Assembly: GCA_964525635.1 (NCBI GenBank)
Contig: CAZGJX010000079.1
Coordinates: 1-21,396 of the forward strand
Reading direction: 5' to 3'
DNA length: 21,396 nt
DNA from: an uncultured archaeon
Lineage (GTDB): Archaea > Asgardarchaeota > Lokiarchaeia > Sigyniarchaeales > SOKP01
Within the stretch, counting starts at the first letter, position 1; each line of letters begins with the position of its first letter. Below the pieces are notes generated by a model. It did no database searches. It was not told the origin of the DNA and saw only the letters and a program-made list of their open reading frames with translations. Position numbers and translations under genes: made by a program. Shown in pieces: positions 10,883 through 16,061 of the stretch.

Positions 10883-11671
10883 ATGAAAAAGGAATATATC
10901 TGCCCTCCAGGAAAGAAAAGTAAAATTGTTATTGAAGATATAACTATTAAAATTAAAGAAGGGGCTACTTTGTTATTAGGATTTGCGGGTATTGGTCTTT
11001 TAGGTCCAATCGTTGGTAATACATTAATTGAACAGATCGAAGATTTAAAGGAAATTGGATTTATTACATCAGAAATGCTCCCTGCTATTTCTACTTTTTA
11101 CAATGGAGTTTTAAAACATCCATTTCGCCTTTATTATAGTAACAGTTATAATTTAGTTTTAGGAATTTCTGAACTTCCTTTTCAATTACAATCAGCATAT
11201 AGTGATTTAGCAAAAACAATTTGTAATTGGGCTTTATCTGATGATGTAAAAGCAAATGAAATTATATTATTTCAAGGGATCCCTACACGAGGAATGATTG
11301 ATGAATTTCCTGTATTTTATGCTTCTGAAAATTATTTAATTGAGGATTTTGAAAAAAATGGAATTCAAAAAGTTGATAAAGGCATTATTGTTGGACCTGA
11401 AGCAACAATAATAAATGAGGCATTAACAAACAGATTAGAATCATTAATTCTTTTCACACCAGTCTATGAAATACCAACCCCTGAGGGTGCTGCTTCTTTA
11501 ATCAATGTATTAAATAAAAAATTTAACATGAATATTGATACGCAATTATTACTGGAAGAAGGAAAAGAGATTAAAGAAAAAATGTTAGAATTAGCAACAA
11601 AAACACAAGAAGTTCAAAGAAAACACATAGGAGAAGGAGGAAAAGAGGGTTATACGCAATATTATCAATAA
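10883..11671 (+). CDS. PAC2-family proteasome assembly chaperone, paralogue 1
   Basis: GFAGIGLLGPI, HPFRLY, P.PEGAA, IDTQLLLEEG motifs. C-terminal HbYX (YYQ). Confidence 0.88.
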   Translation: MKKEYICPPGKKSKIVIEDITIKIKEGATLLLGFAGIGLLGPIVGNTLIEQIEDLKEIGFITSEMLPAISTFYNGVLKHPFRLYYSNSYNLVLGISELPFQLQSAYSDLAKTICNWALSDDVKANEIILFQGIPTRGMIDEFPVFYASENYLIEDFEKNGIQKVDKGIIVGPEATIINEALTNRLESLILFTPVYEIPTPEGAASLINVLNKKFNMNIDTQLLLEEGKEIKEKMLELATKTQEVQRKHIGEGGKEGYTQYYQ

Positions 11672-11750
11672 AATTTACCAAAATGATATTTAATAAATTG
11701 TTATTCTAAATTAAGTAAATTTTATATTTAAAGAATAAAAGTGAAGTATT

Positions 11751-12545
11751 ATGGTTGTTAAAGAATATATTTGCGAAGCAGGTAAAAAAAGTAAGGTTGT
11801 GATAGAAGATTTTTCTACAGAAATTAAAGAAGGGGCTACTTTTTTATTAGGGTTTGCGGGAATTGGTCTTATTGGACCAATAATAGCAAATACTTTAATT
11901 AGACAAATCCCAGATATAAAAGAGATTGGTTTTATTACAAGTGAATATCTCCCTCCGATATCTGTGTTTTATGATGGAGTTTTAAAACATCCATTTCGAT
12001 TATATTATTCTCCAAAATTTAATATAATTATTGGAATTTGTGAAGTACCTTTTGAGATTTCTTCTGCATATAATGATTTAGCTAGAACAATTAATAATTG
12101 GGCATTAGATGAAGATGTTAAGGCAAAACAAGTTGTAATTTTTCAGGGGATCCCTCAACCAGGGGTAATTGATGATTTTACGGTATATTATGCATCAGAG
12201 GCTGAATTAGTAGATTTCCTCGAACAACATGGAATAAAAAAATTTGATAAAGGAATCATCATTGGTCCAGAGTCTACCATTCTTAATGAAACTTTAACAA
12301 ATAAATTACAAGGATATGCTCTATTTGCACCAGTATACCAGATTCCTACACCAGAGGCAGCAGCATCAATTATAACTTTGTTAAATCAAATTTATAGTTT
12401 AGAAATTGATACGTCAAGGCTGATGGAGGAAGGAAAGGAGATTAAACAAAAAATGTTAGAATTAGCAGAAAAAGCTCAAGAATTTAGTCGAAAACAATTA
12501 GCAGAACAAGGAGTAGAAGGAGGATATACACAATATTATAGATAA
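11751..12545 (+). CDS. PAC2-family proteasome assembly chaperone, paralogue 2
   Basis: GFAGIGLIGPI, HPFRLY, PTPEAAA, IDTSRLMEEG motifs. C-terminal HbYX (YYR). Collinear with paralogue 1. Confidence 0.88.
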   Translation: MVVKEYICEAGKKSKVVIEDFSTEIKEGATFLLGFAGIGLIGPIIANTLIRQIPDIKEIGFITSEYLPPISVFYDGVLKHPFRLYYSPKFNIIIGICEVPFEISSAYNDLARTINNWALDEDVKAKQVVIFQGIPQPGVIDDFTVYYASEAELVDFLEQHGIKKFDKGIIIGPESTILNETLTNKLQGYALFAPVYQIPTPEAAASIITLLNQIYSLEIDTSRLMEEGKEIKQKMLELAEKAQEFSRKQLAEQGVEGGYTQYYR

Positions 12546-12620: not shown

Positions 12621-13283
12621 CTAAATATTTGTCTTTTTGCTTTTGAAAATTAAATAATAAAAGTAATAAATTGAGAAAAAAAACTCAGGGACCCATTTTT
12701 GGACTAAAATAATAAAAATTAATGCTCCAACGATTGCAGATAAAACAAATAAAGATTGATGTATGAAATCAAAAGGAATTCCATTATAATTTAAGAATAA
12801 TAAAAAAACAATTCGAAAAATATTAATAATATAAAGGAAAAGAATTATAAAGATTAAAGACTTTATTTTCCTCAACATAAAATCCTTTTTTCTTGAGGAA
12901 GTCGTTGAAGAGGGAATACATATAATGATACTTATAATAATACTAAATACTTGAGCAGCAATACAATTTGGAGTAATTGCATAATTCCCTTCAGAAGGAT
13001 GATTAGGTATAAATATTGTAGGAAAAATATTGTGCTGAGAGTCAATTATTATATATGAATTCATACTAAATATCGAATTTAGAAAAAAAACTATTTGATT
13101 AGCTGTAAACTCATAGATCCAATAATTAATTCGTAGTTTGAGAGATAAGAAGATTAAAAATGATAATAAAGGAATACCTATAATTAAAACTATCATTTGA
13201 GGAATAGCAAATTCATAAGATTTTCCATCAAACTCTATTATTGGTTTTTTATGATTTTGTATCATATAATATGTATAGATCAT
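12621..13283 (-). CDS. Exosortase/archaeosortase-family intramembrane transpeptidase
   Basis: Multi-TM protein with the catalytic triad in the expected order: ITPNC (Cys), NIFRI (Arg), FIH (His). Confidence 0.8.
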   Translation of the reverse strand: MIYTYYMIQNHKKPIIEFDGKSYEFAIPQMIVLIIGIPLLSFLIFLSLKLRINYWIYEFTANQIVFFLNSIFSMNSYIIIDSQHNIFPTIFIPNHPSEGNYAITPNCIAAQVFSIIISIIICIPSSTTSSRKKDFMLRKIKSLIFIILFLYIINIFRIVFLLFLNYNGIPFDFIHQSLFVLSAIVGALIFIILVQKWVPEFFFSIYYFYYLIFKSKKTNI

Positions 13284-13328
13284 TAATTTCTATATAGAAT
13301 ATGAATAAACATAATGAAAAAAAAATTT

Positions 13329-13961
13329 TTATTTAAGAATTATATTTTTTCCGTTTTTTAGATGATATCTGTACACTATAAACATAGATAATGCAATAAG
13401 TAATGTTACAAATAAAACTGGTTCAAAACCAGGAACTTCAATCCCCTCAGATAATTCTGAGAAGAAATTGGAAATGGACTCTCCTAACTCATCCATTTGT
13501 GCTTTAAATATTGGTCCTATAGCATTAATTATGTATACCGGTATCGCTATTATTATTGCTACAATAGCGAAAAGGACATAAGCACAGGCAGAAGCACCCT
13601 CAAAATCAAATCCAGGATGTTCGATTCCTAACCAAACTATTCCGCCAATAATTAATGTTAAGAAAAATATGCTAAAAAAGATTAATGCGAACTGAGATCC
13701 TGGAATGTCAAATCCATTCATAACTATGGCTGTTATAAATAAATTAACTACTCCGATTATTAAGAAGAAGATTAAAATCCTGAAACCTAATTTTAATCCC
13801 CCCTTTTTTTTTGATGGTTTCACACTCCCTGGAATTGAATACTTATTATGAATATCCTTCGACTTTGAATCTTTGTCTAATGAAGCTCCACATTCTCCAC
13901 AATATTGCGCTCTATTGACTTTTTTACCACATTTACCACAAATTATTTTATCTTCTGACAT
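13329..13961 (-). CDS. Zinc-ribbon membrane protein with C-terminal PGF-CTERM/Loki-CTERM-like sorting signal
   Basis: N-terminal CGKCG-x8-CGECG, three TM helices, then EVPGFE-TM-YRYHLKNGK. Confidence 0.75.
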   Translation of the reverse strand: MSEDKIICGKCGKKVNRAQYCGECGASLDKDSKSKDIHNKYSIPGSVKPSKKKGGLKLGFRILIFFLIIGVVNLFITAIVMNGFDIPGSQFALIFFSIFFLTLIIGGIVWLGIEHPGFDFEGASACAYVLFAIVAIIIAIPVYIINAIGPIFKAQMDELGESISNFFSELSEGIEVPGFEPVLFVTLLIALSMFIVYRYHLKNGKNIILK

Positions 13962-14199: not shown

Positions 14200-14616
14200 A
14201 TGAAAATATTACAAAGACAAAAGAAATTAGAAAAACTAGTTCAATTAATTACCATTTTAGCTGTATTATCATTAATAGTTAATCTGTTGATAATATTATG
14301 GATAGAAAATTATATCTCATTAATTAATGGCTTCTCTATTGGATTATTCATATCTCTAGCTTTTTTAGAAATAATAAAAATTTCGCTTGTATTTATAACA
14401 ATATTTAATCTCTTGAAAATTAAGGAATTTAATAGATTTTTCAAGTTTTCAATTTTGATATCATTTTTTATTGCTATTATTTTTAGCAGCTATTTTCTGA
14501 TAAGATTTTTTGCAATGGCTTGTTTTTTTCCATTATTAAGTTTTGTAAGTATAACATTCAGTCTTTTTTCATCTTTTTTAATAATTATAAAAACCAAATC
14601 AAAGAAGGCTTCTTAG
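14200..14616 (+). CDS. Hypothetical membrane protein (about 4 TM)
   Basis: 138 aa hydrophobic ORF with a basic tail. Stop overlaps the stop of the convergent gene by 4 bp. Confidence 0.55.
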   Translation: MKILQRQKKLEKLVQLITILAVLSLIVNLLIILWIENYISLINGFSIGLFISLAFLEIIKISLVFITIFNLLKIKEFNRFFKFSILISFFIAIIFSSYFLIRFFAMACFFPLLSFVSITFSLFSSFLIIIKTKSKKAS

Positions 14617-15563
14617 ATAAATAATGCTAGTTCTAAGATTATTATCCAAATTAGTATCCAGAAAATAAAGATAGTAATATAAATAAATAATTCTATTTTT
14701 TTTTTCTTTAATTCATTTTTAATATTGATAACCATGAAAAGTACTATAATACTTATGAACATCAAATGAGCAGGTTGAATTAATCGCCAAATGTTTAAAA
14801 AAATATCAATAAAAGAAATATTATCTCCTATACTTATACTCTGAAACCAATTAAAAATCATAGATAGGAAGTAGTGGGGAAAAATAAGATATGGTATACA
14901 AACTAATAATAGTGGTAAAAAGTAATAAATCACATTTTTTGTCTTGATCTTATTTATTACTATTAATATAAATGGTACAACAAGGATGATTATCTTAAAA
15001 GTAGCAAAAGTAAATAAAATTCCAGAAAGCCATTTTCTATTTCTATTTATTTGAATATAAGATTCAAATAAGAAAAATTGGATTAACCAGTTCGTATTAT
15101 TTAAATACATATCTGCTAAATAACCAAAACCAGAAAATACAAAAAAGAAAAATAAATCTTTTTTATTCTCAGTTATTATTCTAATTTTAAAAGCGATATA
15201 TAATGTGGATATAAACCTCAATAAATCCCAAATATATAAAGAGATATCTAATGGTATTATATAGAAGGGGTAATAAAGATAATACCAAAAATAGAGATAC
15301 ATTGCTGATTTATCTAATGAGGAGCTATTCTCATAGTAATATATAATTCCGTTGTCCATTAATTCATAATTAGTTTTAAAATTCAAATCTCTATTTTTTA
15401 TTAATAAATCAAGGAAAAATATTTCTCCTATATCATCTTGGAAGAAATAGAAAAGGATTCTTAAAACAATTAAAATCAGAGAGATAATGATGATAATAGA
15501 TATATAAATCAAAAAAGAGTGGTTATTCTTTTCCTTAGATAAGTTTATTTTATCCAATTTCAT
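14613..15563 (-). CDS. GT87/DUF2029-like (GT-C fold) membrane glycosyltransferase
   Basis: TM1 then a loop with RD, aromatic YLYFWYYLYYPF, W in the next helix, NNTN, GILFTFATFK. This is the GT87 layout; about 8-10 TM. Confidence 0.6.
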   Translation of the reverse strand: MKLDKINLSKEKNNHSFLIYISIIIIISLILIVLRILFYFFQDDIGEIFFLDLLIKNRDLNFKTNYELMDNGIIYYYENSSSLDKSAMYLYFWYYLYYPFYIIPLDISLYIWDLLRFISTLYIAFKIRIITENKKDLFFFFVFSGFGYLADMYLNNTNWLIQFFLFESYIQINRNRKWLSGILFTFATFKIIILVVPFILIVINKIKTKNVIYYFLPLLLVCIPYLIFPHYFLSMIFNWFQSISIGDNISFIDIFLNIWRLIQPAHLMFISIIVLFMVINIKNELKKKKIELFIYITIFIFWILIWIIILELALFI

Positions 15564-15617: not shown

Positions 15618-16061
15618 TTATTTCTTTTTTTTTAATTTATAATACTTTTTTAATTGAGCTTTAAGAATAAAATAAATCAAGAATGTTATAAAAAAATGGA
15701 TACTGATTGGAATGATATAATAAATATCCATAATGATCAATAGTGTTAAATAAAGTCCAATGATGAAAAAAACAACAATAGAGACACTGAATAAAAAAAT
15801 AGTAATTTTCTTTAATATTATTATGTTATTTCTCTTCTTTTCATAATATATATCTATAGAACCTATGAAAATTAGAAGAGATACACTCCAAAATAAAAAA
15901 AATAATATAATTTGCGCATTATTAGGATCGATAAATATTGTGAGAATCCAATATATTGAAAAAAATATAAATATTGAAAATAAAGAATTATATACTTCTT
16001 TTTTCTCTTGAATTATTTGTTTTATTAAATTTAAAAATTTCATTTTTCTTAATTTTAACAA
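15618..16061 (-). CDS. Hypothetical membrane protein (about 4 TM)
   Basis: Four hydrophobic segments and a Lys-rich tail. Probable start is ATG 16043. 54 bp upstream of the GT gene on the same strand. Confidence 0.55.
   Translation of the reverse strand: MLKLRKMKFLNLIKQIIQEKKEVYNSLFSIFIFFSIYWILTIFIDPNNAQIILFFLFWSVSLLIFIGSIDIYYEKKRNNIIILKKITIFLFSVSIVVFFIIGLYLTLLIIMDIYYIIPISIHFFITFLIYFILKAQLKKYYKLKKKK

Follow-up and report, generated by a model that had tools for sequence, protein, structure and literature searches.

The window analysed here, a stretch of 21,396 nucleotides of Asgard archaeal DNA from a genome of 4.45 Mb with a G+C content of ~25%, carries a pair of neighbouring genes that are best read, from comparison with their relatives, as a lineage-restricted accessory archaeosortase system, in which the enzyme appears to be dedicated to one unusual multi-pass target and both are embedded in a gene module with a GT-C glycosyltransferase. 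To the reading in which this archaeosortase cleaves the polytopic protein encoded just upstream of it we assign a probability of about 0.6; the cleavage itself, the moiety that would be attached and the part played by the GT-C protein are steps that we infer. Archaeosortases are understood from one model, the ArtA enzyme of Haloferax, through which secreted proteins lose a C-terminal helix and receive a lipid in its place. We know of no experimental work on the archaeosortases of the Asgard archaea, nor of biochemical work on any ArtH-type enzyme or Loki-CTERM target. A polytopic archaeosortase target that has a cytoplasmic zinc ribbon and lacks a signal peptide is apparently undescribed: a literature search, with most subscription journals outside its scope, returned no Loki-CTERM paper, no archaeosortase with a zinc-ribbon target and no polytopic exosortase substrate. 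The curated NCBIfam models currently available cover neither the target family nor the accessory clade to which the enzyme belongs. The features of the locus, at their positions in the window, are the following:

12621..13283, minus strand: archaeosortase, accessory and ArtH-like, 220 aa (TIGR04178, NF041736, tree, AF2 model)
13284..13328, minus strand: 45-bp spacer from the target gene to the enzyme gene, both on the same strand
13329..13961, minus strand: target, 210 aa, with zinc ribbon, K-rich disordered linker, three transmembrane helices (TM1-TM3), acidic outer helix and sorting tail
13875..13961, minus strand: N-terminal zinc ribbon of the target, residues 1-29 (C8, C11, C21, C24), cytoplasmic (alignment, weak Pfam matches)
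13419..13448, minus strand: signature motif EGIEVPGFEP, target residues 172-181, with VPGF at 13425-13436 (alignment)
13332..13418, minus strand: TM4 (residues 182-198) and cytoplasmic tail YRYHLKNGKNIILK (residues 199-210) (alignment, charge count)
14200..14616, plus strand: 138-aa membrane protein, divergent from the target gene (position kept across loci)
14613..15563, minus strand: GT-C glycosyltransferase, GT87-like, module-specific paralog (PF09594, Atlas clusters, co-inheritance)
15618..16061, minus strand: membrane protein of 147 aa, encoded immediately upstream of the GT-C gene (adjacency across loci)

The original prediction had placed two open reading frames on one strand with 45 bp between them, and this is true at the coordinates listed (220 aa and 210 aa). 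The target gene and the enzyme gene probably form an operon; across orthologous loci the spacer between them varies from 3 to 95 bp. Also correct was the layout proposed for the end of the target, namely a VPGF sequence (V176-P177-G178-F179 at 13436-13425), a helix (182-198) and the basic residues of YRYHLKNGKNIILK. Read from its N-terminus, the protein consists of a zinc ribbon with the spacing CxxC-x9-CxxC, for which Pfam matches are weak (DZR, E=0.003; Zn_ribbon), a lysine-rich disordered linker, three hydrophobic helices, an acidic helix, the motif EGIEVPGFEP, a 17-residue hydrophobic helix and the terminal YRYHLKNGKNIILK. Upstream of the ATG the frame is open for at most 9 extra residues (219 versus 210 aa), too few to accommodate a signal peptide, and this bears out the earlier claim that the target has none.

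The target belongs to a small protein family. A word-indexed protein search with the target found nothing beyond the query, and an exhaustive phmmer search of 1.8 billion representatives yielded 13 proteins at E < 1e-10; homologues appear in public records under the title "Promethearchaeota archaeon, hypothetical protein". Across 28 aligned homologues the invariant positions are the four cysteines of the zinc ribbon, G25, P141 (in TM3), I163 (in the outer helix), E175, P177, G178, F179, E180, P181 and S192, the last of which lies inside TM4, and conservation reaches 90% or more at I195, Y197, Y199 and H200. The mean majority is highest in the motif (0.80), with values of 0.71 for TM4 and 0.65 for the zinc ribbon. 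The invariance of the EVPGFEP core residues in all 28 sequences indicates that the PGF motif is not a product of chance; the conservation of PGF, on which the prediction had been made to depend beforehand, is complete in the aligned set. A second PGF in the target, within the sequence EHPGFDFEG of loop 2 (13593-13619, residues 115-123, predicted to be cytoplasmic), is kept in no homologue and is therefore probably fortuitous. Among the proteins set aside were the Atlas look-alikes of the target, all generic zinc-ribbon membrane proteins with scores below 0.9, and tail-less homologues of its N-terminal half, which were not used as evidence and of which at least one (L061) is an unrelated multi-TM protein.

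The distribution of charge over the family bears on the topology of the target. The mean number of lysines and arginines is about 10 in the N-terminal region, none in loop 1, 0.2 in loop 2, 0.8 in the outer helix, none in the motif and 3.2 in the tail after TM4; the outer helix and the motif are acidic, with about 3 D+E each, and the tail after TM4 has 0.1 D+E (family means). By the positive-inside rule both ends of the protein should be cytoplasmic, so that the motif would lie at the outer end of TM4 whatever the arrangement of TM2 and TM3. The AF2 model of the target (pLDDT 70.6) has a small beta zinc ribbon, disorder at residues 30-51 and four helices (58-84, 88-114, 123-171 and 180-208), with the motif in a loop (172-179) before the last of them. 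The PGF motif is thus predicted to be on the extracytoplasmic face of the membrane, and the topology put forward earlier, with PGF outside and the zinc ribbon inside, agrees with both the family charge distribution and the model. The target tail has the features of a generic tripartite sorting signal: a motif that abuts a TM helix and is predicted to be extracytoplasmic, followed by a basic C-terminal cluster. The named models for such signals give a different result, since among the NCBIfam matches of the 28 family members at E<=10 neither Loki-CTERM (NF033507) nor PGF-CTERM (TIGR04126) appears, with the reservation that the HMMER filters may hide very weak matches to the former. The profile searches that had been proposed as a check therefore came out divided, with the enzyme recovered by the exosortase/archaeosortase signature (33.5 bits against a cut-off of 23) and 0 of the 28 targets scoring on the Loki-CTERM or PGF-CTERM models.

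The enzyme of the window also passes TIGR04178 when the whole genome is searched (33.8 bits). Its best named match is ArtH (NF041736), on which it scores 126 bits, below the equivalog cut-off of 200, and the genome has a true ArtH on a separate contig (C8) with 297 bits on the same model; the window gene is thus a second and divergent archaeosortase, and a profile search of the whole genome finds two such enzymes in all. Residues Cys107, Arg157 and His175, the putative catalytic triad, are invariant in 57 of 57 archaeosortase sequences and in a further alignment, and Arg138, Lys139, Pro199 and Glu200 are likewise invariant across the 57; with the TIGR04178 match, this upholds the earlier identification of a Cys-Arg-His archaeosortase. 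The AF2 model of the enzyme is of good quality by its own measures (pLDDT 90.4, pTM 0.84); the enzyme has no sequence relative in the PDB, and a Foldseek search with the model gave no match below E=0.1. The K/R-rich loop SSRKKDFMLRKIK is taken to mark the cytoplasmic side, and together with the helix boundaries it would turn Cys107, Arg157 and His175 towards the outer leaflet, so that the active site and the PGF motif of the target would face the same side of the membrane.

Phylogenetic analysis of 57 archaeosortase cores by maximum likelihood (SH-aLRT support) groups the 20 enzymes that are paired with a target in one clade with a single long-branch sequence (98%), and this clade is nested in an "accessory" clade (99%) that is set apart from the main ArtH enzymes. 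Paired orthologs are 49-62% identical to the window enzyme and main ArtH enzymes 33-37%, and many of the residues that separate the paired clade from main ArtH cluster near Cys107, Arg157 and His175. One genus (g2) contains two distinct lineages of paired enzymes, one of which is nested among the sequences of another genus (g11); taken with the patchy distribution of the family, this suggests that the locus has been gained, lost or transferred.

That distribution was surveyed in 154 genomes of the order to which the window belongs, each searched in full and with fragments at contig ends counted. The target family is present in 23 of them, which represent at least 6 genera and two families; all three further genomes of the genus from which the window comes are without it. 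A sample of 400 genomes from the phylum places the family in two taxonomic families only (24 of 134 genomes in one and 1 of 1 in the other) and in 0 of the 264 genomes of other families. The enzyme ortholog lies directly downstream of the target gene, on the same strand, at 22 of 23 loci, although the 23 genomes are related and amount to perhaps 6-8 independent lineages; the same gene arrangement was confirmed by eye at two orthologous loci. The expectation that the adjacency would be conserved is thus borne out among the genomes that have the target family. Dedicated, or one-to-one, sorting systems are recognised by consecutive genes and by conserved residues within the TM helix of the signal (10.1101/2023.06.07.544157). 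The window pair shows both, since its genes are consecutive and TM4 contains conserved residues, and so it qualifies as a one-to-one system in the sense of Haft at 22 of the 23 loci. An exceptional genome (G048, estimated contamination 9%) has 4 targets and 2 enzymes: two tandem enzyme-target pairs (L092, G048:C176:23000-31000), whose targets lack the zinc ribbon and retain TM1-TM4 and the tail, and, elsewhere, two full-length targets without an adjacent archaeosortase. These unpaired targets argue against a strictly one-to-one relation everywhere, and the relation in that genome is better described as few-to-one.

The tail itself behaves as a unit that is distinct from the commoner sorting signals of the same genome. 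At the C-terminus of about 36 other proteins of the window genome, IPG[FY] is followed by a hydrophobic helix and by basic residues; these proteins, with open frames of 97 to 1697 aa, include beta-propeller and hydrolase proteins, and one of them passes the Loki-CTERM model NF033507 (23 bits). Both Pro at +2 and the Y-x-Y-H-L-K cluster are absent from all of these ~36 generic tails, and the genome has a single PGFEP...YRYHLK tail. It would appear from these counts that a many-to-one system, served by the main ArtH, coexists with a one-to-one system served by the accessory enzyme; the earlier notion of a dedicated enzyme-substrate pair finds support in this match of one PGFEP tail with one accessory enzyme and in the separate clade of the paired enzymes. 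Sister accessory enzymes adjoin unrelated proteins that have ordinary signal peptides and a tail in which PGFEP or PGFDP precedes a TM helix and Y(H/R)K, e.g., ...VPGFEPYLLLGL...TYHLK (176 aa), ...DPGFEPFLFIG...YRFHY (92 aa), ...FPGFEP...YYRK (284 aa) and ...IPGFDP...YYRK (510 aa); neighbours of accessory enzymes with such tails are found at L114:1324-1602, L115:788-1318, L118:64-918 and L119:67-1599. A model of 37 positions built from the tail alone scores the target family at 62-85 bits, and among its best matches from outside the family whose loci were inspected, 4 of 6 adjoin an accessory archaeosortase. The occurrence of the same flavour of tail on unrelated proteins beside sister enzymes implies that the tail is a modular sorting signal, and the zinc-ribbon-less targets of G048, which are still paired, imply that the constant partner of the enzyme is the tail and not the ribbon. 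These comparisons suggest a wider set of one-to-one archaeosortase systems in the same archaeal family.

The pair is itself part of a conserved five-gene module, with the GT87 GT-C paralog and the 138-aa and 147-aa membrane proteins as its other members. A homologue of the 138-aa protein occupies the same position at 17 of 20 other full-length pair loci; neither it nor the 147-aa protein belongs to a Pfam or NCBIfam family, and each has four TM helices as judged by eye. The GT-C protein matches PF09594 (E=1e-4), and its nearest Atlas clusters (score 0.99) have GT87 in 96-97% of their members. Its gene adjoins the pair at 17 loci besides the window, and the 147-aa gene adjoins the GT-C gene at 12 of 12 loci tested; at two loci with a rearranged order the same module genes, the 147-aa gene included, are still together. 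Identities to the GT-C protein are bimodal: copies at 48-62% occur in 22 genomes, 21 of which bear the pair, and other genomes have only paralogs at 45% or less. In the single genome that has such a copy without the pair, the gene lies at the edge of a contig. The co-inheritance of the GT-C gene with the pair is therefore a matter of observation, and it may provide a lead on the nature of the anchor, in the making of which the GT-C protein might have a role.

Our preferred reading, that of a dedicated archaeosortase which cleaves its neighbour, would run as follows. The target would be inserted with its zinc ribbon in the cytoplasm, TM1-TM3 across the membrane and the short, acidic and amphipathic helix outside, with EVPGFEP at the outer end of TM4 and YRYHLK inside. 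A catalytically competent enzyme, with Cys107, Arg157 and His175 near the outer leaflet, would recognise EVPGFEP, specific residues of TM4 and the cytoplasmic Y-x-Y-H-L-K, and would cut at or near PGF on the outer face, with removal of TM4 and the tail. The new C-terminus would probably be joined to a membrane lipid, by analogy with ArtA, or possibly to a glycolipid made with the help of the co-inherited GT87 GT-C protein. After such processing the target would cross the membrane three times, with its outer helix anchored on either side. Cleavage of the target by the paired enzyme is here presumed from what is known of the enzyme family, and several observations stand against it. The target is already held by three TM helices, which weakens the usual rationale of exchanging a TM anchor for a lipid; its tail scores on neither of the curated CTERM models; an acidic helix precedes the motif in place of the Thr/Ser-rich linker typical of archaeosortase targets; and the very strong conservation of TM4 and the tail would fit a stable interaction without cleavage as well. 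Since a lipid anchor seems superfluous for a protein with three TM helices, either the purpose is to pin the outer helix at its two ends or to couple it to something else, or the interaction is regulatory or non-catalytic.

The second of these options leads to an alternative that we regard as unlikely, in which the target remains uncleaved as a stable partner or pseudo-substrate, with PGF and TM4 docked in the active site of the paralog, and regulates or targets the enzyme or couples it to a signal that the zinc ribbon senses in the cytoplasm. For a stretch that cleavage would discard, TM4 and the cytoplasmic Y-x-Y-H-L-K show unusual conservation, the target is polytopic to begin with, and the main ArtH of the genome, which has a C-terminal double zinc ribbon of its own, hints at cooperation between ribbons and enzymes. 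Against this alternative, such a fusion occurs in only 1 of 18 ArtH-type proteins examined, and targets that lack the zinc ribbon are still paired. All enzymes of the paired clade retain the Cys/Arg/His triad, moreover, and the same flavour of tail is found on ordinary secreted proteins beside sister enzymes, which is how cleavable signals behave.

A further reading, which we consider improbable, makes the module a GPI-like Asgard device for anchoring or remodelling, in which the accessory archaeosortase would serve as a transpeptidase and join the new C-terminus of the polytopic target to a glycolipid built with the GT87 GT-C protein and the two small membrane proteins. If so, no enzyme of the exosortase/archaeosortase family would have been shown before it to have an integral polytopic protein as its substrate, or been tied to a glycolipid acceptor. 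Very improbable, in our estimation, is a conditional cleavage that would serve as a regulated proteolytic switch on the zinc-ribbon domain or on the activity of the module, and not as constitutive lipid anchoring. The polytopic build with a cytoplasmic zinc ribbon does resemble that of transmembrane signalling proteins, and the module is accessory and patchily distributed; a cut at the outer face of TM4, however, would leave the zinc ribbon anchored by TM1-TM3, the ribbon is dispensable in the G048 variants, and the module has neither a conserved sensor domain nor a conserved regulator. The least probable account, that the housekeeping ArtH processes the target as it does other Loki-CTERM proteins while the paralog works in a GT-C glycosylation module, draws on the PGF core common to the ~36 generic tails and on the presence of a main ArtH in every pair-bearing genome checked, but it is at odds with the co-occurrence of the target family and the paralog clade, adjacent at 22 of 23 loci, with the systematic difference of the target tail (Pro at +2 and Y-x-Y-H after the TM helix) and with the many paralog-distinguishing residues around the catalytic Cys, Arg and His.

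On the preferred reading, that of cleavage by a dedicated enzyme, the window system can be compared with the sorting systems that it most resembles. XrtE/VPEID-CTERM, which Haft et al. are said to have described in 2012 as a dedicated single-target sorting system, is similar in its one-to-one relation, its consecutive genes and the conserved residues inside its signal TM helix. To our knowledge, the targets of XrtE and also of MrtJ are exported proteins with one terminal anchor. The window target differs from both in that it is multi-pass and has a cytoplasmic zinc ribbon, and the system is archaeal and lies in a module with a GT-C protein. MrtJ/JDVT-CTERM shares with the window pair the same three features of a one-to-one relation, consecutive genes and conserved residues inside the signal TM helix (10.1101/2023.06.07.544157). 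The closest enzyme family is ArtH (NF041736) with its Loki-CTERM targets (NF033507), of which the window genome has its own representatives in the true ArtH and the ~36 IPG[FY] tails; unlike ArtH, the window enzyme is below the cut-off and in a separate accessory clade, and unlike Loki-CTERM, the target tail has the form V/I-E-V/I-PGFEP with Y-x-Y-H-L-K and has no score on NF033507.

With ArtA and PGF-CTERM the window pair shares membership in the same enzyme superfamily, with its conserved Cys/Arg/His, and a PGF motif that abuts a TM helix and is followed by basic residues, although the target tail scores nothing on the PGF-CTERM model. In Haloferax volcanii, a link exists between cleavage by ArtA and the attachment of a lipid, and two genes in synteny, pssA and pssD, are necessary and contribute to anchoring (PMC6098224, PMC7157517). 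The GT-C paralog at the window locus can be likened to these two genes in its synteny with the archaeosortase. The two systems differ in scope: ArtA is one enzyme that acts on many Sec- or Tat-secreted proteins with large ectodomains, whereas the window paralog would act on one polytopic target without a signal peptide. An ArtA substrate of H. volcanii in which the tripartite structure is not C-terminal has been reported (Abdul Halim 2017, as described in PMC6098224). It shows that proteins of unusual build can be processed by an archaeosortase, and it is comparable, as far as that description goes, in its atypical architecture, which there consists of more than a short basic tail beyond the TM helix; by the same description the H. 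volcanii substrate is a strain-specific fusion downstream of the signal, whereas the oddity of the window target lies upstream of the signal and is conserved across genera.

The pair is compact and testable, with an enzyme of 220 aa and a target of 210 aa that has a sharply defined recognition tail, and it could reveal what ArtH-type enzymes cleave and attach and how a TM helix is recognised. The apparent substrate range of the archaeosortase family would be widened by it to multi-pass membrane proteins.

Several smaller observations concern the surroundings of the pair and of the main ArtH. Directly downstream of the archaeosortase gene, on the opposite strand, the window encodes two tandem paralogs of the PAC2 family of proteasome assembly chaperones (10883-12545; Pfam E=1.9e-25 and 1.5e-27), which look unrelated to the module because other genes are found there in L006, the sole orthologous locus read downstream. 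One locus (L044:409-2859, in G125:C214) has two tandem copies of the pair, of which the first encodes an enzyme truncated to 106 aa. The main ArtH of the window genome is a 570-aa fusion (L034:887-2599, about 49886-51598 of contig C8) in which a duplicated membrane region at the N-terminus precedes the ArtH core, and a double zinc ribbon of four CxxC pairs forms the C-terminus. Such C-terminal ribbons are present in 0 of 17 other ArtH-type proteins examined (1 of 18 with that of the window genome), and a Rosetta-stone link between zinc ribbon and ArtH was dropped on this account. The main ArtH gene is followed, in three genomes of two genera, by a gene for the same conserved protein of ~300 aa, MLNFEKDQK... 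or MIEFEKEQK... (L034:2699-3601, L065:2179-3087 and L066:2179-3087).
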